Assembly (NCBI RefSeq): GCF_030538655.1 | Contig: NZ_JAUNTO010000009.1 | Span: forward strand, 12,487-76,486 | Origin: Paracoccus sp. (in: a-proteobacteria) | GTDB lineage: Bacteria; Pseudomonadota; Alphaproteobacteria; Rhodobacterales; Rhodobacteraceae | Direction: 5' to 3' | Length of the DNA stretch: 64,000 nt | Shown: positions 13,571 to 54,054 of the stretch, in pieces | Numbering within the stretch: position 1 is the stretch's first letter | How the letters are laid out: every line of letters begins with the position of its first letter | Notes under the pieces: model-generated | Told to the model about the DNA's origin: nothing | What the model saw: only the letters and a program-made list of their open reading frames with translations | Databases searched by the model: none | Translations under genes and position numbers: made by a program

Positions 13571-13597
13571 GCCCGCCTAACCCCTGAAATCTTCTGG

Positions 13598-13622
13598 AAA
13601 GGGGCCATTTGGGCCCCTTTTT
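13598..13622. terminator. Bidirectional intrinsic terminator hairpin between ndk and the merR-family gene
   Basis: AAAGGGGCC-ATTT-GGGCCCCTTTT: a GC stem flanked by an A-tract and a T-tract. It overlaps the stop codon of the MerR-family gene (13621..13977, minus strand). Confidence 0.5.
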
Positions 13623-13977
13623 ACATGCCCGACCGGACATCCTGAAGATACTGGCCGATCATATCACGGCTTTGCTGTAATTCGGCCATGCGGTCATCCA
13701 GCCGCGCGGCCTCTTGTGTCAGGGCGGCCAACAGGTCGGGGCAGGGATCGAAATCCGGTTTGCTGGTTTTGACGCAGGGCAGAAAGCGGCGGATCAGCTC
13801 AAGCCTTAACCCTGCTTCGTTAAGGGTGCGGATGCGGCGCACGGTGTCTTCGTCTTCTGGCCCGTAATCACGATAGCCCGAGGCGCGGCGGGATGGGCAA
13901 AGCAACCCTTCAGCCTCGTAATAACGCAGCATCCTGACACTGATGCCGGTGCGTTTGGATAATGTGCCGATCTGCAT
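13621..13977 (-). CDS. MerR family transcriptional regulator
   Basis: N-terminal HTH MQIGTLSKRTGISVRMLRYYEAEGLL. Confidence 0.7.
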   Translation of the reverse strand: MQIGTLSKRTGISVRMLRYYEAEGLLCPSRRASGYRDYGPEDEDTVRRIRTLNEAGLRLELIRRFLPCVKTSKPDFDPCPDLLAALTQEAARLDDRMAELQQSRDMIGQYLQDVRSGM

Positions 13978-14051
13978 GTTCAGCCCTTGACCCTGACAGC
14001 GGTGTCAGACCTTAGCTTGCCAGGCGAATCGTGCAAGCAGAAGGATAGGAC

Positions 14052-14846
14052 ATGCCGTTCGCAAGTTTCAAAAATGCTGAAATATCATGGAAAATTGATG
14101 GCAGCGGCCCGCCTTTGGTATTGGTTCACGGCACCGGCGGCGATGCAGACAGCAATTGGGGCGCAATCGTTGGCCAATTGTCCCGACACTGGACGGTGAT
14201 CCGGCCGGAATATTCCGGCTCGGGCGCGACGAAGGACGGGGGCGGGGTTCTGAGGGCAGATGATCTGGCCGGGCAGATTCTTGCGGTTGCGGATGCCGCA
14301 GGGGCGCAGAGCTTTCATCTGATGGGGTTTTCTCTGGGTGCGGCACTTGCGGCCAAGCTTGCGGGCGATGCGCCAGACCGTGTGCTGTCGCTGATCTTGC
14401 TGGCGGGGTTTCAGAATACGAAAGACCCGCGCATGCAATTGCAATTCCGCCTTTGGGCCGATCTTGCTGCGCGGGATCGGGTGACGCTGGCCCGGTTGAT
14501 CCTGCTGACAGGGTTCAGCCCGGATGCGCTGGCGGCATGGACAGCACCGATGGTCGATGAGGCTGTGGCCGGGATTGTGGCGAATACGGATTGGCGGGGG
14601 CTGGCACGGCAGGTGGCGCTGGACCTGGATATCGACGTGTCGGCCAGCATTCCGGGGATCACCGCCCCCGCATTGGTGATCGGCTGTCAATATGACCACA
14701 TGGTGCCGGTTTCGCAGTCGCGTTCCCTGGCCGCGCGGATTGCCGGGGCGGACTATCAGGAACTGCCGACGGGTCATCTGGCACCGGCAGAGCGGCCCGA
14801 CGATCTGGCTGCCTTAATCAAAGCGTTTTTGAAACGGCAACCATAA
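14052..14846 (+). CDS. Alpha/beta hydrolase
   Basis: HGTGGD oxyanion region and a GFSLG nucleophile elbow. Divergent from the MerR-family gene. Confidence 0.65.
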   Translation: MPFASFKNAEISWKIDGSGPPLVLVHGTGGDADSNWGAIVGQLSRHWTVIRPEYSGSGATKDGGGVLRADDLAGQILAVADAAGAQSFHLMGFSLGAALAAKLAGDAPDRVLSLILLAGFQNTKDPRMQLQFRLWADLAARDRVTLARLILLTGFSPDALAAWTAPMVDEAVAGIVANTDWRGLARQVALDLDIDVSASIPGITAPALVIGCQYDHMVPVSQSRSLAARIAGADYQELPTGHLAPAERPDDLAALIKAFLKRQP

Positions 14847-14969
14847 CGGTTGGTTACAGAGATCCGGGCTGTCCTGTCGGGGCAGTCTTTTCATTTGCTT
14901 GTCCTACAGGTTGCGGCGGGCCTGTGCGATGCGCTAATGCTGTGTCAAACAAGTGAAAAGGACAAGGCG

Positions 14970-15896
14970 ATGCGGGCATTCGTTTTTCCGGGCCAAGGCG
15001 CACAGACCATCGGCATGGGGCGCGATCTGGCCACCGCCTATCCGGCGGCAAAGGCAGTGTTTGACGAGGTGGACGAGGCTTTGGGGGAAAGCCTGTCGGC
15101 GATAATCTGGGACGGCGATGCCGAAACGCTGACGCTGACCCGTAATGCCCAGCCCGCGCTGATGGCCACATCCATCGCCGCGATGCGCGCGCTGGAAGCC
15201 GAAGGCTTTGCCGTGACCGATGCCGCCTTTGTGGCCGGGCATTCGCTGGGGGAATATTCTGCGCTGTGCGCAGCTGGCGCGCTGACGCTGGCCGATACGG
15301 CGCGGCTGCTGCGCCTGCGCGGTCAGGCCATGCAAGAGGCGGTGCCGGTGGGGCAGGGCGCGATGGCGGCCATTTTGGGGCTGGATTTCGATGCCGTCGA
15401 TCAACTGGCCCGCGATGCGGCGGGGGACGAGGTGTGTCAGGCCGCCAATGACAATGACCCGGCGCAGGTGGTGATTTCGGGCCACAAGGATGCGGTGGAA
15501 CGCGCCGCCGCGCTGGCCAGGGAACGCGGGGCCAAGCGGGCGCTGATGCTGCCGGTGTCGGCACCGTTCCATTGCGCGCTGATGCAGCCGGCGGCGGCGG
15601 TGATGGCCGAGGCACTGTCGGCGGTCGAGATTGCGGCGCCCGCGGTGCCTTTGGTCGCCAATGTGCGGGCGGAAGGTGTGGTGGAACCCGGCGCGATCCG
15701 CCGCCTGTTGGTCGAGCAGGTGACGGGCGTGGTCCGCTGGCGCGAGTCGGTGGCGAATATGGCCAACGGCGGCGTGACCGAGTTCTGGGAAATCGGGGCG
15801 GGCAAGGCCCTGTCGGGGATGATCCGGCGGATCGCCCCGAATGTCGCGGTTCGCAACTTTGGTGTGTCGGGCGATCTGACGGCGCTGAAGGCGTAA
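14970..15896 (+). CDS. fabD: Malonyl-CoA:ACP transacylase
   Basis: FPGQGAQ and GHSLGE motifs. RBS AAAAGGACAAGG upstream of the ATG at 14970. Confidence 0.85.
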   Translation: MRAFVFPGQGAQTIGMGRDLATAYPAAKAVFDEVDEALGESLSAIIWDGDAETLTLTRNAQPALMATSIAAMRALEAEGFAVTDAAFVAGHSLGEYSALCAAGALTLADTARLLRLRGQAMQEAVPVGQGAMAAILGLDFDAVDQLARDAAGDEVCQAANDNDPAQVVISGHKDAVERAAALARERGAKRALMLPVSAPFHCALMQPAAAVMAEALSAVEIAAPAVPLVANVRAEGVVEPGAIRRLLVEQVTGVVRWRESVANMANGGVTEFWEIGAGKALSGMIRRIAPNVAVRNFGVSGDLTALKA

Positions 15897-17136: not shown

Positions 17137-17193
17137 TTTCAGACCCGGCCTTTGGGCAAGATCGCGGCGCTTCCGGTAACGGGGGCGCCGTTT

Positions 17194-17622
17194 TCATTTG
17201 GCGCGGCGGTTTGCGGCCAGCTGCCAGATCAGCCGCAGGGCAAGCGGTGACAGCGCGGCACTGGCGGCAGCTGGCCAAACTGGCCAGTCCAGCGCGGCGA
17301 ACAGCCAGATCGCTGCGGGCAGCATCAGTATCAGCCCCGGCGTGGTTCCCGGCAGGCGATGACCTGCCCGGATCAAGGCGGAGACCTGTGCCAGCGCCCC
17401 GGCAATAGCTGCCGTGGCGATAGGGGCGACTGACAAGGGAAAGAGCATTGCCGCCAGAATCAGTAACGCAGGCAGCAAACGCGACACGGACAGCACGGCG
17501 CGCAGCCTTGTGCGACGATCCGGCGACGGAACCACGACGCCAGAGACTGCGGCCCGCCACCACGCCATTCTGCGGTGTTCTGGATCAAGAGGGCCGCGAT
17601 CAATGTGATGAGCGGCAGCCAC
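17194..17622 (-). CDS. Hypothetical membrane protein
   Basis: Hydrophobic ORF with no recognisable motif. Start uncertain. Confidence 0.3.
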   Translation of the reverse strand: MAAAHHIDRGPLDPEHRRMAWWRAAVSGVVVPSPDRRTRLRAVLSVSRLLPALLILAAMLFPLSVAPIATAAIAGALAQVSALIRAGHRLPGTTPGLILMLPAAIWLFAALDWPVWPAAASAALSPLALRLIWQLAANRRAK

Positions 17623-17628
17623 ATCGCC

Positions 17629-18447
17629 TTATCGGCCCAGTTTTGCGTGAACCTCGTCCAGATCAACCTCGTCCTTGGGCATCTTGTTGTCGGGGTTGTC
17701 GAAATCATAGCGGAACAGCTGGAAATCCTTTTTGTAGATTTCCCAGACAAGATGCTGTGACAGGTCGTCGAAATATTCGCTGACCTTATATGCCCGCTTT
17801 GGCCCGTGCCCTTCAGATTCGTTGAACTTGGGCACTTGTTCCACGTCCATGGTTACGGGGGTATCGGCGGCATCCAGAACGCGCTGCATCCCTTCGTTGA
17901 ACTTTTCGGTGAAGAAAATCTGATCGTAGCGACCGCCATTCACAATGAACGTGGCGATATGGCCCGACATGGCCGACCAGTGGATGTCGGGTTCCATCGG
18001 GCGGCGCCAGCGGATGGTGTCGCGCGCGAACAGCAGAAAGCGGCGGAAGGATTTGATCTGATCAAAGTCAAAGCCGTCATCCGGGCTGCCCACCTCGACC
18101 CCGTAGCGCTGGATCAGTTGCGGCACCAGATTGCCGCGATAGCGGCGGCCGTTGCGCTGAATCCCGGCGATCTTGTCGAAGAACGATGACAGGATGCGGC
18201 TGTAGGGGTTGCGCACGCAGGTGAACACCACGGCGTCATGTGCGCGCACGGCGCGTTCGATCGGCGCTTCGCTTTCGCGGCGTGCCCATTTGTGCAGCCC
18301 CTCCCTGGCATCGTGAATGTCGCCATCAAAATAGCTGCCATGATCGGAGTGGAACATGATTTGACCGATGGACGAACAGGCACATTTCGGGACCACGCGA
18401 TAGATCAGGCTTTCGCTTTCGGTCATCCAGACGCCGGGAAATCCCAT
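17629..18447 (-). CDS. Carbohydrate sulfotransferase (Sulfotransfer_2-like)
   Basis: 5'-PSB-like YRVVPKCACSSI and 3'-PB-like RNPYSRILSSF motifs. Low-GC codon usage. Start chosen at 18447 for its AAAAGG RBS. Confidence 0.6.
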   Translation of the reverse strand: MGFPGVWMTESESLIYRVVPKCACSSIGQIMFHSDHGSYFDGDIHDAREGLHKWARRESEAPIERAVRAHDAVVFTCVRNPYSRILSSFFDKIAGIQRNGRRYRGNLVPQLIQRYGVEVGSPDDGFDFDQIKSFRRFLLFARDTIRWRRPMEPDIHWSAMSGHIATFIVNGGRYDQIFFTEKFNEGMQRVLDAADTPVTMDVEQVPKFNESEGHGPKRAYKVSEYFDDLSQHLVWEIYKKDFQLFRYDFDNPDNKMPKDEVDLDEVHAKLGR

Positions 18448-18587
18448 GTTATTCTGCCTTTTCTGGCTGTTATGCCTGCCGGTGCTTGCCGAGACGGCCA
18501 AAATCATTCACAGACACAAAGCAAATCGGACCGGAATTTTCAACGGGTTCGGTCAAAAGCGGCTCATATTCTTGCGGATGGACCCCT

Positions 18588-20165
18588 ATGGCGCGGATTG
18601 CCTTTATCCTGCTGTGTCACAAGGACCCCGAAGGTATCGTGGCGCAGGCTCGCCGACTGACCGAGACGGGTGATTTTGTTGCGATCCATTTCGACGCTCA
18701 TGCAAAACCGGCGGATTACGCCCATATCCGCGCTGAACTGGCCGATAACCCGCGTGTGACATTCGCGCGCAAGCGGGTGCGCTGTGGCTGGGGCGAATGG
18801 TCGCTGGTTGCCGCCACGATCGAGGCGGTGCGCGTGGCGGCGGCTCATTTTCCGCAGGCCACGCATTTTTATATGCTGTCGGGCGATTGCATGCCGGTGA
18901 AATCAGCCGGGTTCGCCCGCGATCTGCTGGATCGGGATGATTGCGATTATATTGAATCTTTTGACTTTTTCGAAAGCGACTGGATCAAGACCGGGATCAA
19001 GGAAGAACGGTTGATCTATCGCCACTGGTTCAACGAGCGTCGCCAGAAAACCTGGTTCTATCGCAGCATGGAATGGCAGCAGCGCATGGGCTGGTCGCGG
19101 CCCATCCCCGAGGGTTTGCGGATGATGATCGGCAGCCAATGGTGGTGCCTGCGCCGCGAAACGATCGAGAAAATCCTGACCTTCTGCGACAGCCGCCGCG
19201 ACATCCTGCGGTTTTTCGCGACCACATGGATTCCGGACGAGACGTTCTTTCAGACGCTGGTGCCGCATCTGGTGCCGCGCGATCAGATCCGCACCCGGAC
19301 GCTGACCTTTCTGATGTTTACCGATTACGGAATGCCGGTGACGTTTTATAACGATCACTATGACCTGCTGCTGGGGCAGGATTATCTGTTCGCGCGCAAG
19401 ATCAGCCCCGAGGCGCTGGACCTGAAGGAACGGTTGGGCCAGTTATGGCAATCGGGGCGGCGCGACTTTGCCATCTCGGGCGAGGGGCGGGAATTGCACG
19501 GCTTTCTGACCCGGCAGGGGCGGATCGGTCTGCGCTTTGGTCGCCGCGCGTGGGAGGCGTCGGCGCAGGTGGGCAGCGGTAACGTGCTGCATGTCATCCT
19601 GTGCAAAAAATGGCATTTCGCTAAACGGCTGACGCAGGCAATCCGCGACCGGACCGGGATTCCGGCGGTGGATTATCTGTTCAACGAATCCGAGGCGCAT
19701 CTGCCTGATCTGGGCGGGCTGGAACAGGGCTGGGACAAGCGCAACCACCATCGCCGCGCCATGATCGCGATGCTGATGCAGCATTTTGGTGCCGGGCGGC
19801 TGGTGATGTGTCTGGACCCGGCGAATGCGGGGCTTCTGGCCGATCTGGCGGCCGACCGCGCCGATCTGCGGGTGCTGCATATCGACTGTGATTTCAGCGA
19901 CGATTACCTGCGCGGCCATGTGGCCCGCATTGGTCTGGTCGGCCCCGACACCTCGACCGAGCGGATTGATTCGCTGATCCCGGTCATGCGCCGCGATCTG
20001 GCGCATGAGGTCGAAACCCTGCGCGACATGACCTTGCCCCGGTTCGGGATGATTCGCGTAGATGCCGACAGTCAGGCCAATGCCGCCGCACTGGCGCGGT
20101 TTCTGGATGTTTCCGACGAACTGGCGCATGATCTGGCCGAAACGCCGCATCTGTTTGCCGATTGA
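18588..20165 (+). CDS. GT14 (core-2/I-branching)-like glycosyltransferase with an unknown ~290 aa C-terminal domain
   Basis: Branch-family-like N-terminus (LLCHKD...HFD...YMLSGDCMP...WWCL). The C-terminal half has no recognisable motif. Confidence 0.5.
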   Translation: MARIAFILLCHKDPEGIVAQARRLTETGDFVAIHFDAHAKPADYAHIRAELADNPRVTFARKRVRCGWGEWSLVAATIEAVRVAAAHFPQATHFYMLSGDCMPVKSAGFARDLLDRDDCDYIESFDFFESDWIKTGIKEERLIYRHWFNERRQKTWFYRSMEWQQRMGWSRPIPEGLRMMIGSQWWCLRRETIEKILTFCDSRRDILRFFATTWIPDETFFQTLVPHLVPRDQIRTRTLTFLMFTDYGMPVTFYNDHYDLLLGQDYLFARKISPEALDLKERLGQLWQSGRRDFAISGEGRELHGFLTRQGRIGLRFGRRAWEASAQVGSGNVLHVILCKKWHFAKRLTQAIRDRTGIPAVDYLFNESEAHLPDLGGLEQGWDKRNHHRRAMIAMLMQHFGAGRLVMCLDPANAGLLADLAADRADLRVLHIDCDFSDDYLRGHVARIGLVGPDTSTERIDSLIPVMRRDLAHEVETLRDMTLPRFGMIRVDADSQANAAALARFLDVSDELAHDLAETPHLFAD

Positions 20166-20176
20166 AAGGACAGCCT

Positions 20177-20557
20177 ATGACCCCGGCTTATGACGATCAG
20201 AACATCTTTGCCCGTATCCTGCGTGGCGAGATTCCCTGCGACAAGGTGGCTGAAAATGACCACGCACTGGCGTTTCGCGACATCAACCCCGCTGCGCCGG
20301 TGCATGTTCTGGTAATCCCCAAGGGGGCTTATGTCAGCTTTGACGATTTCTGCGCCCGCGCCAGCGAGGCGGAACTGGCCGGTTTTCTGCGCCTCAGCGG
20401 TCAGGTTGCCGAGGCCGAGGGCGTCGCGCTGAAACGCGGCGCGGGTTTTCGCGCGATCACCAACGCCGGGGAACACGGTGTTCAGGAAGTGCCGCATTTC
20501 CATCTGCATATTCTGGGCGGGCGCGGCATGGGGCCGATGTTGACGCGCCGCGACTGA
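20177..20557 (+). CDS. HIT (histidine triad) family nucleotide hydrolase/transferase
   Basis: C-terminal HFHLHILGG histidine triad. The RBS AAAGGA overlaps the upstream stop. Confidence 0.75.
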   Translation: MTPAYDDQNIFARILRGEIPCDKVAENDHALAFRDINPAAPVHVLVIPKGAYVSFDDFCARASEAELAGFLRLSGQVAEAEGVALKRGAGFRAITNAGEHGVQEVPHFHLHILGGRGMGPMLTRRD

Positions 20558-20734
20558 TTGCGTCCCGCGATGCCGGGGGGGCATTCTGCCCCCCCGGCCC
20601 CTGAGGGCGGTTCAGGTCGCAGCAGTGATCCACCATGGATTGCGCTTGCACTCCAATTTGGTTGCAAACGCGCGGTTTTGGTCCGGCATACTGGCCCCCG
20701 GTTGCCCATGCGTCCGGGGGCGGTCCTGTGCAGA

Positions 20735-21973
20735 TCAGCGCCGTTTCAGCATTCTGCCCAACGCCCGCACCGGCGCGGTCAGACGCCACGAGGTGCTGGC
20801 CTGCACTTCTGTCTTATAGGCGGTCAGAGCGCGTTCCTGATCGGCCAGCCGCTTGGTCAGGGTGGCGATGGTCGCGCTGCTGGTTGCACTGTCGCGCTGA
20901 TGTGCGCTTTCCGCCTCGGTCATTTGTTTGCGGATCTGCGCCAGAGTATCGGCTGACTGGCCCTCGATCTGCGCCCTTACCCGCTCCAGCTCTGCTGTCA
21001 GCGCGGCGGTTTCGAAAAAGCGGCTCTGCCGTTCCTGCGCCGCCTGTGCTTTGGCCAGATCTTGATCGGCGCGCGCCTCGTCCAGCGCGGCGGCCAGTTC
21101 GGCCAGCCGTGGATGCGGGTTTCCGGCGGCATAAAGCGCCGCCTGCGCGCGCGCCAGTTCCAGCCCGCGCGCATCCCATGACTGGCGCAGTTGGGTCAGC
21201 TCCTTGCCCATGGCCCGCGCCTTGTCGGCCTGTGTGGTTGCCCGTCGTTCGGCAATTGCGACACGGCGCGCGGTTTCCGTGGCGCTGCCCAGTTGCTGAA
21301 ACATCCAGCAGATCGCCCCGGCGGCCTGACCGTCCTGCGCATTCGCCGCCAGATCGGCCACCGCCGCAGGCAGATCGTCGCCTGCCCCCAACAGCGTCAG
21401 CCCCGCGCCGACATCCAGCCACAGCCCGGCACCCATCTGCGCCGTCAGCCCGCGCGGTGCGCCGACCAGCACCAGCAGCCCGCCGCCGACCAATCCCGCG
21501 CGCCAGTCGCGGATCCGCGCCGCAAGCGCGTCGTTGCTGGCATCGGCATCCAGCGTCACCAGCATCAGATCGGGGCGATCCGGCGCGGGGGCGGGGGCAT
21601 CGCCAACCTGAAGCCGCAGCATCGCGGGATACATCTGTTCGGCGTGGCGCAGCAGCCGGTCGGGCGCGGCGGTCAGCGCGCGGCCCGTGGCCGGGTCGGT
21701 CCAGTGGCCACAGCCGATCACCTGCGCGCCCGCTTCGGCACCCGACGCCTTGTCCATCGCTTGACAGACCGCAAACAGCGCCGCCCCATCGCCGACGTTC
21801 AGCGCCAGCACCCGCCGGGGCCGCAGCCGGTCGGCCAGCCAGAACAGTGTCGGGATCAGCGGCGTGGTTGTGCTGTCGCCCACAAGGCGGGGCTGCCACA
21901 GCAGGGCCGGGGTCCACAGGGCGGCAAGGCCATTCGAGGCGTCGTGATGGTCGGGTTCAAATATGGTCGTCAT
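20735..21973 (-). CDS. Hypothetical protein: methyltransferase-like N-terminal domain plus a long Ala/Gln-rich coiled coil
   Basis: VLALNVGDGAALF resembles a SAM-binding motif I. The C-terminus is heptad-rich and ends TSWRLTAPVRALGR. Confidence 0.4.
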   Translation of the reverse strand: MTTIFEPDHHDASNGLAALWTPALLWQPRLVGDSTTTPLIPTLFWLADRLRPRRVLALNVGDGAALFAVCQAMDKASGAEAGAQVIGCGHWTDPATGRALTAAPDRLLRHAEQMYPAMLRLQVGDAPAPAPDRPDLMLVTLDADASNDALAARIRDWRAGLVGGGLLVLVGAPRGLTAQMGAGLWLDVGAGLTLLGAGDDLPAAVADLAANAQDGQAAGAICWMFQQLGSATETARRVAIAERRATTQADKARAMGKELTQLRQSWDARGLELARAQAALYAAGNPHPRLAELAAALDEARADQDLAKAQAAQERQSRFFETAALTAELERVRAQIEGQSADTLAQIRKQMTEAESAHQRDSATSSATIATLTKRLADQERALTAYKTEVQASTSWRLTAPVRALGRMLKRR

Positions 21974-23469
21974 GAGGCGCGGGCCTTTTGCGGGTCAGAA
22001 GGGGCGGGCAGGGATATGGCAGCAGCGCCGTGACGTTCCAGCAGGATCAGCCGCCCGGTCATGCGCGGGTGATAGCCGGGGGGCAGCGCCCCGGCCGGCT
22101 GGGTCGGTGTGGCGCGGGTCAGCAGGATACGGTGGGGCGACAGGGCGGTGACAAGCGCCGCGAAGGCCGCCTCATCAGACGCCTGCGCGGGCGCGGTCAG
22201 CAGCAGCGGGCCAAGCCTGTTCATCTGGTCCCACAGGGATGCATCGGGCTGATCCTGCGCCAGAACCGTGATGGGCGATGCACTGGCCAGATCGTCATAA
22301 GACAGCGCCTGTTCGATCAGCGTCGCATCGTCAGGCAGCAGCAACAGCGACCAGCGCCCTGCCGCACAGGCAAACAGCCGCGCCAGCCCCGGATCGCGCA
22401 GATGCACCGACACGCCGCTGTCCGACCACCAGGGCATCAGCGCCTCTAGCTCGGCCTCGGTCAGCGACAGCGCGGTATCGGCGAAACGCGCCGGTTCCCC
22501 GGTGCGGGCGGCGACGCCAGCGGCCTGCCGCAGCGCGGTGGCGAACAGCGCCTGCACCGCCGGTTCGATCTGATCCGCCAGATCAGCCGCCGGTTCCGTC
22601 CCGGCATCGCCCAGGGGCAGGGGCGCATCCAGAATGCCCGCTTGCATCAGCGCCGCATTGCCCTGCGCCATCGCCTGCATCTGCCATTGCGGCATCAAAA
22701 CCGGCGGCAGGGCGGTGGCCAGCATATCGGCGGGCAGGGCCTTGGCGGTCTGGCGCAGGTGGTGTTCGACCTCCAGCCGCTCGGGCGGGGTCATGTCGCG
22801 CATCAGCGCGTTCAGGCGGCGCTTGGTCTCGATCAGGACCAGCGATTTTTCGCGTTGGTTGGCGTGGATCGCATCGGCCAGTTGCGGGTCGGTGACAGGT
22901 GTCCCGATCTCATCCAGAAAGCGGCGGACCAGCGGCGCGGCGGGATCGTGAAACGGAAGCGCCCGGACCGAGCGCGCCTCCATGATCCGCGCCAGATGCG
23001 CCAGCCGCGCATCATAGCAAACGGCACCGCGTGTGAACTCGGTATTCAGGAAGTCGTGGAAGGGCTGAACACTGGCGCGATAGCCGCCAAGCACTTCCTC
23101 GATATAGCGCGATTTCAGCCAGTCGAACTGCGGGCGCAGCACCGCGACAATCTCTACCTGCCACCCGGCAAAATGATCGCGCAGCCATTGCAGCCGGGTG
23201 TCGGACACATCGGCAATCAGGTTTTCCGCGCTGAGGATCACCGCCGTATCCGGGTGCGCGGCCAGTTCGGCGTCGAAATCCGCCGTCGCTCCGTCCTCTC
23301 GCAGACTGAGCAGCGACAGATGCCCCGGTGTCCGTTCCTGATCCCAGCGGTTCTGCCGCGACAGCACCGAGCGCGGAAACAGGAAACCATGGTCAATCAG
23401 CACATCGGCCTGCGCCTCCAGATAGTTCTGGATCGAGGTGCTGCCAGCCTTGGTCTGGCCCACATGCAA
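21970..23469 (-). CDS. Sulfotransferase-like protein with a ~250 aa C-terminal extension
   Basis: The N-terminal HVGQTKAGSTSIQ resembles a sulfotransferase PAPS P-loop, and LRPQFDWLKSRY resembles a 3'-PB motif. 4-nt overlap with the downstream gene. Confidence 0.45.
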   Translation of the reverse strand: MHVGQTKAGSTSIQNYLEAQADVLIDHGFLFPRSVLSRQNRWDQERTPGHLSLLSLREDGATADFDAELAAHPDTAVILSAENLIADVSDTRLQWLRDHFAGWQVEIVAVLRPQFDWLKSRYIEEVLGGYRASVQPFHDFLNTEFTRGAVCYDARLAHLARIMEARSVRALPFHDPAAPLVRRFLDEIGTPVTDPQLADAIHANQREKSLVLIETKRRLNALMRDMTPPERLEVEHHLRQTAKALPADMLATALPPVLMPQWQMQAMAQGNAALMQAGILDAPLPLGDAGTEPAADLADQIEPAVQALFATALRQAAGVAARTGEPARFADTALSLTEAELEALMPWWSDSGVSVHLRDPGLARLFACAAGRWSLLLLPDDATLIEQALSYDDLASASPITVLAQDQPDASLWDQMNRLGPLLLTAPAQASDEAAFAALVTALSPHRILLTRATPTQPAGALPPGYHPRMTGRLILLERHGAAAISLPAPSDPQKARAS

Positions 23470-23491
23470 AATCAGCCGGCGCGGGGCGGGA

Positions 23492-24535
23492 TTATCGGTT
23501 ATTGTCGCTGTCCAAGCGGGATTCGTCGCAGATCAGGTCGGGTTCGGCCTCGTCCGCGGTATGTGCAGGATCGCCGAATTCCGTCGCCAGATCGCCCGAA
23601 AAGAAATGCGACATCACCAAAGATACGCCGAACGGGTTCACATTGCGCAGGTCCGGTTCATAAAACATCGCCCGCGACGGATGGGCCGAGATGATCTCGT
23701 ATGAGGGGAAATAGGCCACATCATCCAGCGTCGAGGCCAGATCGCCCGCCACCGCCCGCAGCACCGATTTGGAATAGCTGGTCGCCACCATGACATGATC
23801 GCGCGAAGCCGTCGCCGCCAGTGGAACCGGCGAGACGGTCAGCAGCATCCGCGCCGACGGATTGACCGACCGCAGCCGGTCCCAGAACCCGCGCATATCG
23901 CGATCCACCCCGCCATAACGCAGATTGCGGAACCGATAGCGCGCCTTGTCATATGTGCCTGCCACGGTGCCGGGGGCCATCGGGAACATGGTGCCGTCCT
24001 CGATCAGTTCCCAGCCTTCGGTCAGGCCCATGGTGAACACGAACACGTCCAGTTCCGCGAACATCCGCCGCACCGCCGCCAGATGGGCTGCGCGCAATGC
24101 GATCACGTCTTCGGACGTGGCCTGCCCTACCGGGTCGATCCCCGGCCGCAGCGCATCGAAAAACCGCCCGTCGCGTTCCCACACCGTTTCGGCGGGGCTG
24201 CGGTTGCCATGCGCTTCGTCAAACAGCTGGATCAACTGGCGCGAGGTATAGATGTTGCCATAGCGACAGGAAAACACGCCATAGCCCCAGCGGCGAGCCT
24301 CGTTTTCCGATGCAAACACAGGCGGGGCGGGTTCCATATCCATGAATGCCGCGCCGCGGCGGGCCAGATTGTTGCCGATATGCTGGGCAAAGCAACTGCC
24401 CGCCGTCGCCACCCGGTCGGTGCGGCGCAGGGGCATCGGCTGCCACAAATCCGTCAGATCGGCGTAATGGCGGCTGCCGACGGCGGCTTTCCAGAAGGCC
24501 TTTTCCGGCTTGTTCTGATAGGGGTGACGGGTCAT
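23492..24535 (-). CDS. GSCFA family protein
   Basis: Eponymous ATAGSCFAQHI motif. Confidence 0.6.
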   Translation of the reverse strand: MTRHPYQNKPEKAFWKAAVGSRHYADLTDLWQPMPLRRTDRVATAGSCFAQHIGNNLARRGAAFMDMEPAPPVFASENEARRWGYGVFSCRYGNIYTSRQLIQLFDEAHGNRSPAETVWERDGRFFDALRPGIDPVGQATSEDVIALRAAHLAAVRRMFAELDVFVFTMGLTEGWELIEDGTMFPMAPGTVAGTYDKARYRFRNLRYGGVDRDMRGFWDRLRSVNPSARMLLTVSPVPLAATASRDHVMVATSYSKSVLRAVAGDLASTLDDVAYFPSYEIISAHPSRAMFYEPDLRNVNPFGVSLVMSHFFSGDLATEFGDPAHTADEAEPDLICDESRLDSDNNR

Positions 24536-25488
24536 TGCGCACCTTTGGGCAGAGGGGGCAGTTGCGCGTTGCGCAGCAGTGCAGCCAGTTCCAGATCAGC
24601 CGGGGCAAAGCCCGCAGCCATGTGCTGTTTCGGTGCGGCGGTGGCCGGGGCGGGGCTGGCCTTTTGCGAAAGACGGTGGCGGGTTTCGATCAGGTCGATG
24701 GCCGACCAGGATGGCGCCGTCAATGCCGCCATCAGCCATGGCGCGATGGCGGACCAAACCGGCCCATGCCCCGTTTTGCCGGGATAGACCATCTCGGTTG
24801 TGATTTTCGCCCGGTCATCATGGTTGGTGATTGCGCCCAGAAACGGGATCGCATGGTTGAACAGGTGGAACGTGTCGGTGTTGTTTTGAATAAAGACGAC
24901 GTTGTTTGGCACCTGCTTGCCATAAAGCGTCCGCAGATCGGTAACCGTGCCGGGCAGGTCGCGCACGTCATCATGCCCCGGCCAGCAGAGTGCAACATAA
25001 TCTGAAACGTGACCAGAATAATAGTTTGCAATATTGGTATGCGCGTTTGAAACGAGTGCAAGGCTTCCCGCGTGATGCCAAGAATAAAGCAGCGCCGGAA
25101 AGCCACCCGCGCTGCTGCCGAAATAGATTGCGCGATCGACTTTCAAAACTTGAGTAGCTTGCTGGCAAAATACGGAGATCAACCGTTGAGCTGCGAAATT
25201 ACTATTGCCTGCATACCATCCTATGCGCAGTTTGTCGTGCTGATTCAGGCTTGGGTCGGCCAGCATCAGGCTATGCAGGTTTTGAGTGCTGCTGGACGGC
25301 AATCCAGCAAAAGACGGCACAGTCCGCTTTTCGCGGTCAATGGCCCCGTGAAAGCCAAAGATGATCCGGCGCGCCCCCGGCGCGGGGCGCCAGTCAAGGT
25401 GAATATCGGTGCCGTCCAGATTCAGCACCAGCCGCCCTTGTGTCTGCGCCAGATCCTCGGGCGATGAAATGCGGGTGAAATCGGTCAT
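24532..25488 (-). CDS. Hypothetical protein with a GxSxG (FGSSAGG) motif, possible hydrolase/esterase
   Basis: No family recognised. It has the lowest GC in the window (visually ~50%). Confidence 0.4.
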   Translation of the reverse strand: MTDFTRISSPEDLAQTQGRLVLNLDGTDIHLDWRPAPGARRIIFGFHGAIDREKRTVPSFAGLPSSSTQNLHSLMLADPSLNQHDKLRIGWYAGNSNFAAQRLISVFCQQATQVLKVDRAIYFGSSAGGFPALLYSWHHAGSLALVSNAHTNIANYYSGHVSDYVALCWPGHDDVRDLPGTVTDLRTLYGKQVPNNVVFIQNNTDTFHLFNHAIPFLGAITNHDDRAKITTEMVYPGKTGHGPVWSAIAPWLMAALTAPSWSAIDLIETRHRLSQKASPAPATAAPKQHMAAGFAPADLELAALLRNAQLPPLPKGAQ

Positions 25489-27611
25489 GGGGCCTCGGTC
25501 GCGGTTGGGGCAGGGGATGCCTGCACTGGCAGCGCCGCCACCTTTGGCGCGGTCTGGGTGCTGTAGGCTAGATCAAGCCTCAGGCCATCGGCGACATGGG
25601 TTGTCGGACGCAGGAATTCCTCGGTCGATACTTGCCAGCTGTGCTGGGCAATTTGGCTGTAACGAACGGCGATATGATCATAGGGATCGGCAGAAAAGGT
25701 AAGACCGCCTCGCTCTCTCGCGTCGTTATAGAACGCGATATCTACAGCCTTGGGCAAATCCTGAAAGCGTAAGTCATCGAGTTTGCTGCGTGACCAGAAA
25801 ATCGTGCTGCCGAAGACACGCTCCACAATCTGGTTCGCTTTCCTTTCAGAAAAACGCAGCACCAGCGCATCCGTATCCTGCGCATAGCAATAGGCCCGTG
25901 CCCGTCCGGTTATGGCGATGTTGTCATGCCCCGACCAGGTCAAGGCCGCGATGCTGCTGCGGATATAGTCGGGACCATAAAAATCGTCGTCGTCGATCTT
26001 GGTCACAAGATCGGTATGACAGGCATCCAGCCCAAGGTTCAGCGCCCGGCCCAGTGAAACCGCCGGGTCAGGCAGATCAATCACGGTCAGTGAGGTCACA
26101 CCGTCAAATGCCGCCTCGATCCTGGCGCGATCATGGCCCGCCCCCTGCGCGACATAGACGACATGCAGGGGCCGGTGGCTTTGTGCCACCAGTTGCGCGG
26201 CGATGCGATCCAGACGGTCAGGGCGTTTTGAACAGACAATCGCTGTGACCGGCTGCTGGCAGGCGGGATCAAGCCCGGTCATGGCGGCAAAATTGCGCCG
26301 CACGACGTGATCGGGCACCACGCCGCCTTGCGGGGCGGCGAACGGGCGGGGCGCGCCGGGTTGTGGCGGGAAATGCAGCCGGGCTGCATCGGGTTGACCG
26401 GGGGACAGGGTTGCGTGCCACTGCCGCCAACCGGCTGCGTAATCTTTGCGTGTCTGGGAAAGGCCGGTTTCTGCGTTGATGCCCGATTCGGGGTGGTTGG
26501 TCAGGCTGCCCTCCATCTCGATGGCAAACATCGCCATCAGAGGAAGGCGGGTGAATTCATCGCTGATCAGGGTTTCGGTCCGGGCGATCAACTCGCTGTC
26601 GGCACCAAAGCGGGCGCAATCCCATCCGCCCAAGGTGTCGCGCAGGAAATCGGCGCGAAAAGTCGTTGCGATGGGGCAAAGCCGGGTCACGCCATCGGTG
26701 CTGTAGCTGGATTCGACCGCAAACCGCACCACCGCGCCATCCGGGTTCATCCGTGCCATCTGCGGCACACTGGCGCGCGGCGGGGTTGGTGCGGACAGGA
26801 TCGCGCCGATATGCTGTTCGATCCGCTGCGGATGCGCCCAGTCGTCGGCATCATGGCCGGTGATCCAGTCACCCCGCGCCATGGTCAGCGCGATGTTCTT
26901 GGCCACATACGGCCCCGCATTCACCCGCCCGCGCAAAATGCGCACGCGGCTGTCGCTGGCCGCGATCTGCTGCATCTCGCCCCAGGTGCCGTCGGTGCTG
27001 GCATCATCGACGATCAGCAGTTCCAGATTGCGCCATGTCTGGTTCAGGATCGAGCGCGCTGAGGCGGTGATGGTGCCTTGGGCATTCCACGCAGGCATGA
27101 TGACCGACACCAGCGGCCCGCCTGTTACCGGCGTCAGCCCTTGCGCGCCAAAACGGTCGATCAGATGCGTGCCCGCGTCCTTGGCCCATGTCACCGGGGC
27201 CGCGCCGAAATGGCCGATATAGCGGTTCAGATGCGCCAGCCAGCCCACCCGGTCGCCCGCCGCCAGCGCCCGGTTGGCGCGCAGGGTTTCAATCGTATAG
27301 GCCGTTTCCACCGGCACATGCGCCGCAGCATAGCGCACCGCCACGTCATAGCCATAGTCCTCGGCGATCCGTGCCGCCATGCGCAGCGATTGCCGCGTGC
27401 GCGGCGGCGGCAGATAGTCGGCCAGCCGGGCGGGGTTTTCGGCCAGCCCCGGCCCCGCCGCCCGCCGCATCAGCACGCCATAGCGGCGATAATGCAGCGC
27501 CGGGTCCAGCCCCGACATATCCACATCGGGATAGCGGCGGCGATAAAACTCGGCGTCGAAGGCCTGGCCTTTCAGAATGGCGTCCGCCAGCTTGGCACGG
27601 GTTTCAGGCAT
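25485..27611 (-). CDS. Multidomain glycosyltransferase: N-terminal ~45 aa conserved module, central GT2 domain and a second C-terminal GT2-like domain
   Basis: LVSVIMPAWNA...LLIVDDASTDGT...GHDADDW, then VTAIVCSKRP...KIDDDDF. Confidence 0.65.
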   Translation of the reverse strand: MPETRAKLADAILKGQAFDAEFYRRRYPDVDMSGLDPALHYRRYGVLMRRAAGPGLAENPARLADYLPPPRTRQSLRMAARIAEDYGYDVAVRYAAAHVPVETAYTIETLRANRALAAGDRVGWLAHLNRYIGHFGAAPVTWAKDAGTHLIDRFGAQGLTPVTGGPLVSVIMPAWNAQGTITASARSILNQTWRNLELLIVDDASTDGTWGEMQQIAASDSRVRILRGRVNAGPYVAKNIALTMARGDWITGHDADDWAHPQRIEQHIGAILSAPTPPRASVPQMARMNPDGAVVRFAVESSYSTDGVTRLCPIATTFRADFLRDTLGGWDCARFGADSELIARTETLISDEFTRLPLMAMFAIEMEGSLTNHPESGINAETGLSQTRKDYAAGWRQWHATLSPGQPDAARLHFPPQPGAPRPFAAPQGGVVPDHVVRRNFAAMTGLDPACQQPVTAIVCSKRPDRLDRIAAQLVAQSHRPLHVVYVAQGAGHDRARIEAAFDGVTSLTVIDLPDPAVSLGRALNLGLDACHTDLVTKIDDDDFYGPDYIRSSIAALTWSGHDNIAITGRARAYCYAQDTDALVLRFSERKANQIVERVFGSTIFWSRSKLDDLRFQDLPKAVDIAFYNDARERGGLTFSADPYDHIAVRYSQIAQHSWQVSTEEFLRPTTHVADGLRLDLAYSTQTAPKVAALPVQASPAPTATEAP

Positions 27612-28983
27612 CGAACGGCTCCTGTCGGTCAGGGCAAGTGGCGGGGATCAGCGAAGCGGGCACGATCATCGCATCCGGCGCGGGAAAGCGGCGTATCCGT
27701 TGGGGAAACCCAAGCCGTTTGTCATCGGCCCCGGCGCGGCTGTGCCAGTCGCGCCAGCTTTCGTTATAGGCTTGGCGCGGCCCCTTGGCCCCGCCCGTCT
27801 GGCGCAAGGCGCTGGCCGGGGCGTTGGTCAGGTTATCGGCCCCATCAAGGCACAGCATGGCAAAAACATCCAGATTGCGCCATGCCGGGCCAAGCAGGCT
27901 TTGGGCGCGGGCCACCATCTCGCCATCGGCACCAAAGCGCACACAGTCGAAATAGCCCAGCCGGTCGCGCAGCGTATCGGCATGAAACAGCGTCGAAACA
28001 AAGGCCCGCCGCCGGAAACCGTCGGGCGCATGGTGCAGGCTGGCCGGGATCACATTGCCGAAATGCCCCGCCGCCCCCATACGCAGCATCATCGCCGTGC
28101 TGGCCAGAATCGCGCCCTCGCTGCGTAGAACGTCGGACATGTGCCGCTCGATCCACTGTGGATGCGCCCAGTCGTCGGCGTCGTGTCCGGTGATCCATGC
28201 GCCGCGGGCCATCTGGCTGATGGCGATATTCTTGGACACGAACGGGCCAAGGTTGCGGCTGTTGCGGATCACCCGCACGCGGTCATCGGATGCCGCGATC
28301 TGCCGCAACGCGGCGGTGGTGCCATCGGTGCTGGCATCATCGACGATCAGCAGTTCCAGATTGCGCCACGTCTGGTTCAGGATCGAGCGCGCGGCGGCGG
28401 TGATCGTATCGGCGGCGTTAAAGGCTGCCATGATGACGCTGACCAAAGGCCCGCCGGTGCAGGGCGGCAGCGTTTCGGTTGTCAGCCGGTCCAACAACCG
28501 CGCGGGCTGCGGGGCAAGCCGCAGCGGTGCGATGCCCCAGGGTGACAGGTAGGCGTTCAGATGATCCAGCCACGCCAGCCGCCCGTTAACCTTGTCCCGC
28601 AAGGCCAGATCGGCGGCGATCAGATGCAGCGGGCGCAGCGCCTTGTGGCCCAGATGCGCGCGCGCCATCTGTGCGGCCTGATCCAGCCCTTCGGTCGCGG
28701 CAATCTTGCGCGCGGCGATCATCACCCGCCGCCACAGATCATCGGGCGGGCCATCCCGCAGCCAGCGGTCCAGCGTGCCCTGCGCATCATCCGTGCCATC
28801 GGCCAACAAATCCGCGCGCAGCCCCGGCCCCGGATCGCGCCCCATCAGGTGGCCCACGCGTTTGTAATGCTCCAGCGGCGACAGGCCCGAGCGCGCAACA
28901 TCGGGATAGCGTGCGGCATACCAGCCCGCATCGAACAGAGCCAGCCCGTCCAGATCCCGCCCAAGCTGATCGCTGTTCGCCAT
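27604..28983 (-). CDS. GT2 glycosyltransferase, paralogue of the GT2 domain of 25485..27611
   Basis: Same N-terminal module (RYPDV..SGL.P..HY...G.....GPG) and GT2 core. It shares a ~90-nt near-identical DNA stretch with the neighbouring gene. Confidence 0.7.
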   Translation of the reverse strand: MANSDQLGRDLDGLALFDAGWYAARYPDVARSGLSPLEHYKRVGHLMGRDPGPGLRADLLADGTDDAQGTLDRWLRDGPPDDLWRRVMIAARKIAATEGLDQAAQMARAHLGHKALRPLHLIAADLALRDKVNGRLAWLDHLNAYLSPWGIAPLRLAPQPARLLDRLTTETLPPCTGGPLVSVIMAAFNAADTITAAARSILNQTWRNLELLIVDDASTDGTTAALRQIAASDDRVRVIRNSRNLGPFVSKNIAISQMARGAWITGHDADDWAHPQWIERHMSDVLRSEGAILASTAMMLRMGAAGHFGNVIPASLHHAPDGFRRRAFVSTLFHADTLRDRLGYFDCVRFGADGEMVARAQSLLGPAWRNLDVFAMLCLDGADNLTNAPASALRQTGGAKGPRQAYNESWRDWHSRAGADDKRLGFPQRIRRFPAPDAMIVPASLIPATCPDRQEPFDA

Positions 28984-28992
28984 AACCCGGCC

Positions 28993-30255
28993 TTACAGGC
29001 GCAGATCGGATTGATCGGTCGGAAAGGCGGCCTTCATGTCAAAGAAAACCCCGCCGGGACGCAGGTAATCGCGCAGGGGTTGCGGCCCGTCAGAGACAAA
29101 GTGATTGTGTGCAACCGCCAGAATGATTGCATCATAAACGCCCCGCTGCGGATCAGTCAGCGTGACGCCATATTCATGCGCCAATTCGCTGGGGTCTGCC
29201 TCGGGGTCGGTCAGATCGACCTCCAGCCCCCAGTCACGCAGCGTGGCGATCAGATCGACAACCTTGGTGTTGCGAATGTCGGGGCAGTTTTCCTTGAAGG
29301 TCGCCCCCAGCACCAGCACATGCGCGCCACGGATCTGCATATCGCGCGCAATCATCGCCTGCACCAGCCGCCGCGCCACCTCGCGCGGCATCCCGTTGTT
29401 GATCTCGCGCGCGATGCGGATGATGTCGGGGATATGGCCTGCCTTTTCGGCACGGTGCAGCAGATAATACGGGTCAACCCCGATACAATGCCCGCCGACC
29501 AGACCGGGCTTGAGCCGCATGAAGTTCCACTTGGTCGCGGCTGCGTCGATCACCTCGGATGTGTCGATGCCAAGGCGGGCAAAGACCATCGCCAGTTTGT
29601 TAATCAGGGCGATGTTCACATCACGCTGGGTGTTTTCAATCACCTTCGCCGCCTCGGCCACGCGGATCGAACTGGCCTTAAAGGTGCCCGCCGTGATGAT
29701 CGTGCGATACAGCCCATCGACAAAATCGGCCACGGCCGGGGTGGACCCGGACGTTACCTTGACGATCATCGGCAAAGGCCGCGCCTTGTCGCCGGGGTTG
29801 ATCCGTTCGGGACTGTAACCGACATGGAAATCCTCGTTGAACCGCAGGCCGGACACCCGTTCCAGAACCGGAACGCAATCTTCCTCGGTCGCACCGGGAT
29901 AGACGGTGGATTCAAAGATCACCACATCGCCTTTGCCCAAAACCTGCCCCACCGTTTCCGATGCGCGGATCAGCGGCGTCAGATCGGGACGATGATTGCC
30001 GTCAATCGGGGTCGGCACGGCGATGATATAAACCGAACGGTCGCGAATTTCATCAACTGCACTGGCGAAACGCAGATGTGGCGACTGGCTCAGATCATCC
30101 ACCTCGCCAGTGCGGTCGGTGCCGGCGCGCAACTCGGCCACACGGAGTTCCGATATGTCAAAGCCGATGGTGTCGAAATGTTTCCCGAATTCGACAGCCA
30201 GCGGCAAGCCCACATAGCCCAATCCGATAATGGCGATGCGCGGCGCCTCATTCAT
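28993..30255 (-). CDS. Nucleotide-sugar 6-dehydrogenase (UDP-GlcNAc/GalNAc or UDP-glucose dehydrogenase family, TviB/WbpO-like)
   Basis: IAIIGLGYVGLPLA N-terminus and the UDPG/MGDP dehydrogenase three-domain layout. Confidence 0.75.
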   Translation of the reverse strand: MNEAPRIAIIGLGYVGLPLAVEFGKHFDTIGFDISELRVAELRAGTDRTGEVDDLSQSPHLRFASAVDEIRDRSVYIIAVPTPIDGNHRPDLTPLIRASETVGQVLGKGDVVIFESTVYPGATEEDCVPVLERVSGLRFNEDFHVGYSPERINPGDKARPLPMIVKVTSGSTPAVADFVDGLYRTIITAGTFKASSIRVAEAAKVIENTQRDVNIALINKLAMVFARLGIDTSEVIDAAATKWNFMRLKPGLVGGHCIGVDPYYLLHRAEKAGHIPDIIRIAREINNGMPREVARRLVQAMIARDMQIRGAHVLVLGATFKENCPDIRNTKVVDLIATLRDWGLEVDLTDPEADPSELAHEYGVTLTDPQRGVYDAIILAVAHNHFVSDGPQPLRDYLRPGGVFFDMKAAFPTDQSDLRL

Positions 30256-44616: not shown

Positions 44617-44618
44617 CG

Positions 44619-46326: not shown

Positions 46327-46336
46327 GGGGAAACCG

Positions 46337-53996: not shown

Positions 53997-54054
53997 TAGA
54001 CCGAAAGGTCTGGTTTACTGATTGGCGAGGCAATCTGTGCGAGGGACGAAAAAG

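Follow-up and report, generated by a model that had tools for sequence, protein, structure and literature searches.

A 12.6-kb block of glycan-related genes (positions 17629-30255) in a 64-kb stretch of the Paracoccus sp. contig NZ_JAUNTO010000009.1, referred to here as the window, is best explained as two independent units, a conserved gene trio (unit A, 17629-20557; g1, g2 and g3) and a mobile cassette (unit B, 20735-30255; g10 through g4), which probably came to lie next to each other by chance in this Paracoccus lineage. The composite architecture of the block is held with high confidence, while the chemistry of the cassette product is put forward tentatively. The initial annotation of this DNA had read the block as one single island with both of its sulfotransferases acting on one polysaccharide. 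Neither claim was upheld, as the trio is found order-wide and elsewhere without glycan genes and the cassette is found elsewhere without the trio. Because the two sulfotransferases belong to different units (g1 to unit A and g5 to unit B), one shared product cannot be inferred.

The gene map of the window was obtained by open reading frame (ORF) calling guided by the GC content at third codon positions (GC3), and the ORFs listed in the initial annotation were all recovered in place. The features of the block are as follows.

17629..18447, minus strand: g1, Sulfotransfer_2-family sulfotransferase (272 amino acids (aa) from Met21 of an ORF ending at 18507)
18448..18587: divergent g1/g2 intergenic region, with a conserved element of about 30 nt at about 18510-18545
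18588..20165, plus strand: g2, fusion of GT14 (Branch) and DUF5928 (525 aa; ORF 18486-20165)
20177..20557, plus strand: g3, HinT-like HIT protein (126 aa, 11 nt after g2; ORF 20162-20557)
20735..21973, minus strand: g4, last cassette gene; N-terminal domain of about 170 aa, long coiled coil and tail
21970..23469, minus strand: g5, sulfotransferase-fold N-terminal domain (residues about 1-300) and class-I-methyltransferase-like C-terminal domain (about 350-480); frame open to 23503
23492..24535, minus strand: g6, GSCFA-family protein (SGNH hydrolase superfamily; Pfam PF08885, E 2e-50)
24532..25488, minus strand: g7, orphan α/β-hydrolase-like protein with an HG...GxSxGG...D...H pattern
25485..27611, minus strand: g8, double GT2 (708 aa; N-terminal domain of about 165 aa and two GT2 modules)
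27604..28983, minus strand: g9, GT2 (459 aa; paralogue of the N-terminal two-thirds of g8)
28993..30255, minus strand: g10, probable TviB/WbpO-type UDP-N-acetylhexosamine 6-dehydrogenase, first cassette gene
23503..26269: segment absent from a sister Paracoccus genome, which has 21 bp there instead (L008 16202-16223; from blastn breakpoints and junction sequences)

The g1-g2-g3 trio

More than 4,294 homologues of g2 were found, nearly all of them 524-525 aa long and 58-66% identical, and at least 589 Rhodobacterales species genomes encode this protein, with hosts that include Paracoccus, Rhodobacter, Gemmobacter, Thioclava, Roseovarius, Sulfitobacter and Yoonia, among others. A survey of 80 species-representative loci out of these genomes showed that the trio stands alone in 78; g1 is encoded divergently within 600 bp of g2 in 75 of 76 loci, and a co-directional HIT gene is found within 400 bp of g2 in 78 of 79. 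Downstream of the trio, zf-CHCC and polA are present in 41 and 43, respectively, of the 58 loci with full flanks, and in P. versutus, R. capsulatus and Donghicola the trio lies amid housekeeping genes and has no neighbouring glycan genes. In 10 Paracoccus species, ndk-fabD-fabG-acpP is found directly upstream of the trio, as in the window; 9 of these 10 have an ABC ATPase gene after the HIT gene and not the cassette, which is carried by the sister genome alone. Across these species g1 is 81% identical, and FabD and FabG are 80-81% identical. Given this order-wide and near-invariant arrangement, the FabD/FabG-level conservation and the native codon use described below, the trio is a vertically inherited core-genome module of Rhodobacterales and not island cargo.

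An AT shift suggestive of horizontal acquisition had been claimed for several genes, most clearly in two stretches, 17.6-19.5 kb and 24.5-25.5 kb. The dips in raw GC are real (0.58 at 18-19 kb and 0.56 at 25-26 kb, against a window mean of about 0.66), but when each gene was compared with the 54 genes of the window by z-score, only the second stretch was found to be truly atypical, with limits at 24532-26270. The dip at 17.6-19.5 kb, formed by g1 and g2, sits at codon positions 1 and 2; the GC3 z-scores of these genes are -1.0 and -0.9 and their synonymous codon-use z-scores +0.2 and +0.7, respectively, which is native. The AT shift of g1 and g2 therefore reflects amino acid composition and not foreign codon use, and horizontal transfer of the 17.6-19.5 kb stretch is ruled out.

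The block had also been described as sitting where fabF would be expected. This premise was not borne out by the synteny of relatives: no ketoacyl-synthase gene was found within 10 kb downstream of acpP in at least 10 distinct contexts with an identical AcpP, among which the gene content after acpP varies, and fabF does not follow acpP in nine further Paracoccus species, where the trio is found instead. Displacement of fabF by the block is thus ruled out. A strong intrinsic terminator at 17164..17191 on the plus strand (12-bp stem with 9 G-C pairs, then a T-run) closes the fabD-fabG-acpP transcript and marks the left boundary of the block. Between acpP and g1 lies an ORF of 142 aa (17194-17622, minus strand) with two hydrophobic segments and a codon-use z-score of -4.3, which is missing from the sister genome; short stretches of it resemble small unannotated ORFs beside an Acetyltransf_5 gene in other Paracoccus genomes.

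Profile searches confirmed the Sulfotransfer_2, Branch and GSCFA assignments made for the block. The match of g1 to Sulfotransfer_2 (PF03567; E 4e-33) reaches 116 bits against a cut-off of 22 and covers 250 of 252 profile positions, which substantiates the call made for 17629-18507. A Lys in the 5'-phosphosulfate-binding (PSB) loop and an Arg and Ser in the 3'-phosphate-binding (PB) strand-turn-helix have been described as the features that define sulfotransferases (PMC11625862). In 39 orthologues of g1, which are 265-272 aa long, the PSB-loop Lys motif 'VPKCACS' and the PB Arg...Ser motif 'VRNPYxRiLSS' show a conservation of at least 95%; g1 carries the motifs that PMC11625862 gives for sulfotransferases dependent on 3'-phosphoadenosine 5'-phosphosulfate (PAPS) and is predicted to be a PAPS-type sulfotransferase. 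In Sulfotransfer_2 membership and in these Lys, Arg and Ser residues g1 resembles the carbohydrate sulfotransferases NDST, 3-OST, NodH and Mesorhizobium loti KpsS, from which it differs in being part of a trio with GT14-DUF5928 and not of a polysaccharide locus.

The GT14-like enzyme proposed for ORF 18486-20165 was recovered as a Branch/GT14 match (E 3e-17) in g2, together with a DUF5928 match (E 3e-101), and the N-terminal domain also has the GT14 GT-A fold. The DUF5928 half, modelled with predicted local distance difference test (pLDDT) scores of 80-95, gave second-tier structural matches, both to a sulfotransferase domain and to kinases of the P-loop type, among them adenosine 5'-phosphosulfate (APS) kinase, and contains no Walker A motif; judging from this model, DUF5928 may have a fold similar to P-loop kinases and sulfotransferases and may bind a nucleotide. 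Compared to the eukaryotic GT14 enzymes core-2 β1,6-GlcNAc-transferase and xylosyltransferase 1, g2 shows 15-20% identity and differs in being bacterial, presumably cytoplasmic, fused to DUF5928 and invariably accompanied by a HIT protein and a sulfotransferase, as well as in the putative P-loop-kinase-like fold of its DUF5928 half, without a Walker A motif. The HIT protein predicted from ORF 20162-20557 also proved correct, as g3 matches Pfam HIT (E 4e-22; 79 bits against a cut-off of 21.5) and HxHxHxx is present in 78 of 79 g3 orthologues; its score against the Escherichia coli HinT equivalog, 94 bits, is below the cut-off of 206. No transmembrane segments were found in g1, g2 or g3. Literature searches found no paper that mentions DUF5928 and none on Rhodobacterales sulfotransferases.

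The divergent region between g1 and g2 contains a conserved element, ACAAAGCAAATCGGACCGGAATTTTCAACGG, with the general form AAAGCAAA...TTTTCAAYG, which is kept in 67 of 81 loci across genera and whose distance to the g2 ATG downstream is roughly constant, at 45-67 nt. Read on the g1 strand it is promoter-like (TTGAAA-N16-CTTTGT). In genera other than Paracoccus, two TGTC half-sites are found 11 bp apart in the middle of the element, which may resemble a Pho box. A scan with Rfam detected no RNA element in the block.

The seven-gene cassette

The cassette is a minus-strand operon of seven genes that runs from g10 through g4 and is translationally coupled, with overlaps of 4-8 nt at four of its six junctions. 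The g5 family is rare: it comprised 24 clusters among 5.8 billion proteins in a word-indexed search, and an exhaustive profile search found full-length two-domain relatives in a few dozen clusters at 50% identity. The identical gene order (dehydrogenase, GT2, double GT2, g7-like, GSCFA, g5-like and g4-like fragments) was found in P. sediminicola at another site, between MipA and an acyltransferase gene, and rearranged versions were found in Thioclava indica and Tropicimonas. Moreover, a 306-kb plasmid of P. alcaliphilus (NZ_CP067127.1; locus L098, 8239-13446) carries a mosaic copy, in which a truncated unannotated dehydrogenase is followed by g7-like, GSCFA and g5-like genes and which includes an unrelated glycosyltransferase with 45% GC and a GC3 of 0.47. 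The trio is not found near the cassette in any of these four, and the 9 Paracoccus species in which acpP is likewise followed by the trio lack the cassette. In the window, the position of the cassette is a break in the usual downstream synteny of the trio (zf-CHCC, polA). GC3 of the cassette is below that of its flanks in three other hosts (loci L016, L017 and L098), with the glycosyltransferase/g7 portion always lowest. This patchy distribution, the different sites, the plasmid copy and the AT-shifted codons in other hosts fit a rare, horizontally mobile operon, although no integrase, transposase, tRNA target or flanking direct repeats were found at the cassette ends (the only tRNA of the window is at 51.5 kb). 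Horizontal acquisition, which had been suggested for the whole block, is therefore retained for the cassette and dropped for the trio.

In the genome analyzed here, g7 is the sole whole gene of the block with atypical composition (GC3 0.643, z-score -2.7; codon-use z-score -2.3). The C-terminal 262 codons of g8 (25485-26270), which encode its second GT2 module, show the same low GC3 (0.645, z-score -2.7), and it is because of this shared value that the atypical stretch is placed at 24532-26270. Comparison with the sister Paracoccus genome, a metagenome-assembled genome (L008, on the same contig as L018) with 83-93% DNA identity across 6150-30262, showed that it lacks a 2.77-kb segment covering g6, g7 and the second GT2 module of g8. 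The double GT2 is thereby truncated after its first module, with a new stop that overlaps the ATG of g5, and the breakpoint at 26269 coincides with the composition break in the window. The simpler reading of this difference is a deletion in the sister, which is favoured because other genomes normally have all seven genes in this order; the composition break at 26269 would also fit a recombinational replacement in the genome analyzed here. Between the two sister genomes, g4 and g5 are 71-84% identical and the trio 93-96%.

Among the cassette enzymes, g10 has three UDPG_MGDP_dh domains, scores 360 bits against TIGR03026 (cut-off 190) and aligns end to end with the NCBIfam TviB equivalog at 513 bits, below the cut-off of 592. 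The UDP-sugar 6-dehydrogenase predicted at 28993-30255 can thus be specified as a TviB-like NDP-sugar dehydrogenase. Although g10 is in these respects (end-to-end likeness to TviB, the three domains) similar to the enzymes of the Vi-antigen and WbpO pathways, with the score below the equivalog cut-off, the cassette differs from the Vi antigen locus in that it lacks the TviC epimerase, the TviE GT4 polymerase and the Vex exporter and in that its putative polymerases are GT2 enzymes. The two GT2 paralogues that had been noted were verified, with GT2 matches in 25485-27611 and 27604-28983 (Pfam GT2, E 1e-28 for g9) and 45% identity between g9 and g8 over 437 aa. At the N-termini of g8 and g9 (27117-27611 and 28489-28983), a domain of about 165 aa with the motif 'F/WYxxRYPDV...GLxPxxHYxRxG' was observed, which has no Pfam match.

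Both GT2 modules of g8 contain a DxD motif (DAD at residue 254 and DDD at residue 540), and the first module is similar to a uronosyl-transferase module. Among PDB structures, its best match, with an E of 8e-21 across 235 residues, was the GT2 module of the Pasteurella heparosan synthase PmHS2, and it also matched the GlcA-transferase module of K4CP, the chondroitin polymerase of E. coli K4 (residues 374-474; E 1e-13). Like these glycosaminoglycan (GAG) polymerases, PmHS2 and K4CP (KfoC), g8 combines two glycosyltransferase modules in one soluble polypeptide, and its operon also contains a UDP-sugar 6-dehydrogenase gene. By contrast with them, identity is low, and the best NCBIfam equivalog scores (50-86 bits) are far below the cut-offs of 250-500, so that orthology of g8 to a known GAG synthase is not indicated; g8 also has the additional N-terminal domain of about 165 aa and a separate paralogue, g9. 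Furthermore, the cassette dehydrogenase is probably of the N-acetylhexosamine (TviB) type and not of the Ugd/KfiD type, and no kps export genes are adjacent. Bacteria with GAG capsules are not known to sulfate them.

No Pfam or NCBIfam matches were obtained for g4, g5 and g7, and searches of solved structures by sequence with g1, g4, g5 and g7 gave nothing significant. The 'GxSxG' protein reported at 24532-25488 (g7) does have an invariant HG...GxSxGG...D...H pattern, formed by H47-G48, G124-x-S126-x-G128, D205 and H208/H241, and belongs to a family of 12 clusters among 5.8e9 proteins. The best matches of the family profile were all α/β-hydrolases at the nucleophile elbow and were weak (PDB E 0.006), and Pfam Abhydrolase_1 was matched, also weakly (E 0.002), by 4 of the 12 family members. 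The GSCFA assignment at 23492-24535 (g6) stands, with a profile match of E 2e-50, and g6 is 72-75% identical to the cassette copies in three other genomes; no function for GSCFA was found in the literature.

For g5, a second sulfotransferase-like protein at 21970-23469, no direct Pfam or NCBIfam match was found at E ≤0.01, and the earlier assignment is borne out by the motifs and the relatives of the protein. Its family has invariant residues typical of PAPS-binding motifs (K-A-G-S-T, LRPQxDWLxSRY and one Glu), and the N-terminal domain has a central β-sheet, PSB and PB elements and similarity to solved sulfotransferases. The link to Sulfotransfer_1 is transitive, as the distant relatives P0206 and P0235 score there in the homologous region. 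An exhaustive profile search placed this domain in a superfamily with 11,823 representatives, which are often fused to GT2. In the model of g5 (pLDDT 87), residues 350-480 superpose on class-I methyltransferase-like folds, and no conserved S-adenosylmethionine (SAM)-binding motif was found in this C-terminal domain across the family. The lack of a Pfam sulfotransferase match and the fusion to a methyltransferase-like domain set g5 apart from known carbohydrate sulfotransferases. The description of g4 (20735-21973) as a methyltransferase-like coiled-coil protein holds for the coiled coil, since its PDB matches are coiled-coil proteins only, and not for the methyltransferase part, for which there was no supporting match; its N-terminal domain, with the motif 'RPRxVLxxxVGDGAAxFAxCQAxDK', had no significant match in sequence searches. 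This domain and the tail, with the motif 'STSWRxTAPxR', are kept in L008, L016 and L017.

Proposed pathways and alternative explanations

The organization of unit A, with g1 divergent from the two-gene operon g2-g3, and the soluble nature of its proteins suggest a pathway that would act in the cytoplasm. The GT14 domain of g2 may add a sugar from a UDP-sugar to a conserved acceptor, and g1 would sulfate a product. In the cassette, g10 is predicted to oxidise UDP-GlcNAc or UDP-GalNAc to the corresponding uronic acid, and g9 and the two-module g8, which together would provide three GT2 active sites, could assemble an acidic chain containing N-acetylhexosaminuronic acid at the cytoplasmic face. 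This chain would then be sulfated from PAPS by g5, while g6 (SGNH) and g7 (α/β-hydrolase-like) may add or remove O-acyl groups and the coiled coil of g4 may scaffold the complex or limit chain length; initiation, export and PAPS supply would have to come from unlinked genes. Judged from sequence, the cassette thus plausibly makes an acidic HexNAc-uronic-acid polymer with sulfate and O-acyl decorations. That all parts of both proposals are correct, with the trio as an order-wide cytoplasmic glycosylation-sulfation pathway and the cassette as a system that polymerises and sulfates a GAG-like HexNAc-uronic-acid polymer, is unlikely. A functional link between trio and cassette in this lineage is unsupported.

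A comparable arrangement is the sulfated capsule locus of Vibrio sp. KMM 8419, in which sugar-nucleotide genes, GT2 genes, an α/β-hydrolase gene with the lowest GC and sulfotransferase genes are found, and whose composition was taken to indicate horizontal gene transfer (PMC11641403). In addition, that locus contains kpsDMET/S, wecA and, for PAPS, a second set of cysNDC genes, termed the hallmark by its authors (PMC11641403). The joint presence of sugar-nucleotide genes, GT2, α/β-hydrolase and sulfotransferases is shared with the DNA analyzed here, whereas kps export genes, wecA and cysNDC are absent from the window.

Several observations weigh against the account given above. Trio and cassette lie side by side in two genomes, this one and the sister. 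The 64-kb window contains no polysaccharide exporter, no initiating phosphoglycosyl transferase and no APS kinase or ATP sulfurylase (cysC, cysN, cysD). At the start of g5, the frame stays open as far as 23503, where ATA is found in place of the ancestral ATG, which the sister keeps, and with the first canonical start (TTG at 23469) the β1 strand in front of the PAPS loop would not be translated. For the roles proposed for g4, g6 and g7 the evidence is weak or limited to the fold class, and the GSCFA family has no characterised member (PMC9487903). The same is true for DUF5928, whose fold was read from second-tier matches of a model with a mean pLDDT of 69. When DUF5928 was compared, profile against profile, with the sulfotransferase families of g1 and g5, there was no signal, a test that was uninformative because the control pair, g1 against the N-terminal domain of g5, failed too.

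Accordingly, what had been called a sulfated surface polysaccharide, possibly containing uronic acid or amino sugars, is supported as a glycan pathway with a sulfotransferase, but that the polymer is located at the surface is an assumption, since no exporter, initiating transferase or PAPS-synthesis genes are present in the window, and g5 has ATA in place of its ATG. The start of g5 assigned by NCBI is GTG at 23463, with which the conserved β1 strand 'RRLIL' is lost, and the g6 stop codon overlaps 23460-23503; P. sediminicola g5 keeps an intact ATG. Because g5 lacks a canonical start codon, sulfation may be weak or lost in this genome.

The opposing view of the whole 12.6 kb as a single island acquired in the place of fabF, which would use both sulfotransferases to make one sulfated surface polysaccharide, could draw on the contiguity of the genes, on glycan-related domains throughout, on the lower raw GC at 18-19 kb and 25-26 kb and on the same adjacency in the sister. 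This view is very improbable, and the synteny survey largely refutes it. The trio occurs across the order and stands alone in 78 of the 80 loci, it is conserved like the fatty acid synthesis genes and has native codons, the cassette occurs without a nearby trio in P. sediminicola, Thioclava, Tropicimonas and on the plasmid, and fabF never follows acpP in the relatives examined. Two other explanations concern the cassette only. Its genes could decorate or extend a lipid-linked glycan (O-antigen or capsule) from an ABC-transporter-dependent pathway encoded elsewhere, with g4 as a WbdD-like ruler or terminator and g5 adding a terminal sulfate or another end-group. The solubility of all proteins, the lack of Wzx, Wzy and an initiating enzyme in the cassette, the long coiled coil of g4 with its conserved C-terminal tail and the combination of a sulfotransferase fold with a methyltransferase-like domain in g5 are consistent with this possibility, as are a distant relative of the g5 domain fused to a KpsC/S-type Capsule_synth domain and GT2, and the presence, here and in the sister only, of GDP-sugar genes (gmd, manC, an Fcl-like gene and an aminotransferase gene) 5-10 kb upstream. 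However, no Wzm/Wzt or Kps transporter is found in the window or beside the cassette elsewhere, the resemblance to WbdD is presumed, the N-terminal domain of g4 has no significant match and the C-terminal domain of g5 has no conserved SAM-binding motif, and we regard this explanation as doubtful.

Somewhat less likely still, the cassette may be decaying in this lineage and yield no sulfated product, with g5 poorly translated and with g6, g7 and half of g8 already lost in the sister. The change of ATG to ATA, which removes the canonical initiation site of g5, the 2.77-kb deletion inside the sister operon, the truncated dehydrogenase in the P. alcaliphilus plasmid copy and the low identity of g4 and g5 between the sisters (71-84%, compared to 93-96% for the trio) could all be signs of such decay. 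On the other hand, the seven ORFs are intact and their overlapping stop/start junctions are kept, initiation at ATA, ATT or CTG is rare but allowed, the position of the g6 stop, 22 nt before the TTG, would permit re-initiation, and all catalytic-motif residues of g5 are kept. Two independent units, a core trio and a mobile cassette, remain the best explanation for the block.

Neighbouring loci and significance

The surroundings of the block in the window are as follows.

13148-13570: ndk, before the block
13621-14846: MerR regulator and α/β-hydrolase genes, between ndk and fabD
to 17136: fabD, fabG and acpP, followed by the block
after the block: dinB, a YgfZ/CAF17-like gene, an MsbA-like ABC exporter gene and further housekeeping genes

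The statement that no exporter lies inside the block was confirmed, and no block protein has a transmembrane segment; Kps, Wzm/Wzt or Wzx/Wzy exporters were found neither in the block, nor in the 64-kb window, nor beside the cassette in four other genomes. The MsbA-like ABC exporter, which the initial annotation had offered as the nearby candidate, was rejected as a partner of the cassette, as it scores MsbA-like and lacks linkage to the cassette in other genomes. Near the block, sulfur-related functions are limited to a complete ABC importer of the sulfate/thiosulfate type at 43588-47056 (a sulfate-binding protein above the curated cut-off, two permeases and an ATPase), which probably serves housekeeping sulfur assimilation.

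A second set of sugar-nucleotide genes is found at 7308-13090 (RfbH/DegT-like aminotransferase, Gmd, ManC, Fcl-like reductase/epimerase and FAD oxidoreductase). This set has native codon use, is common only to the sister and is not present upstream of ndk in nine other Paracoccus. The MerR regulator and the α/β-hydrolase, which is PcaD-like, form an insertion at 13578-14970 that is missing from the sister genome; with GC3 z-scores of -2.0 and -2.2 and codon-use z-scores of -2.4 and -2.5, it looks more recent than anything in the block. An ORF of 818 aa (38232-40688, minus strand) in a region of strongly negative GC skew failed the GC3 filter. At 54022-56000, a metallophosphoesterase gene overlaps a gene for a GT21-type glycosyltransferase, a pair presumably similar to PlcP/Agt, which remodel lipids under phosphate starvation in marine bacteria.

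With regard to annotation, these results show that a low-GC stretch can reflect the amino acid composition of a core gene and that neighbouring glycan genes need not form one island. Few marine and soil bacteria are as well studied as Rhodobacterales, which include the roseobacters and Paracoccus, yet the trio has no assigned function and no literature on it was found; it represents a well-defined knockout target in model strains such as R. capsulatus and P. versutus. Characterised sulfotransferases of bacterial polysaccharides are very few, and the cassette is tractable for studies on the roles of GSCFA and the orphan α/β-hydrolase and possibly for making sulfated acidic glycans. If the proposed reading is true, the cassette would provide the first functions for the GSCFA and orphan α/β-hydrolase families, in O-acyl modification of glycans, and the trio would make a conserved sulfated glycoconjugate not yet described, with DUF5928 representing a new nucleotide-binding domain related to sulfotransferases or kinases.

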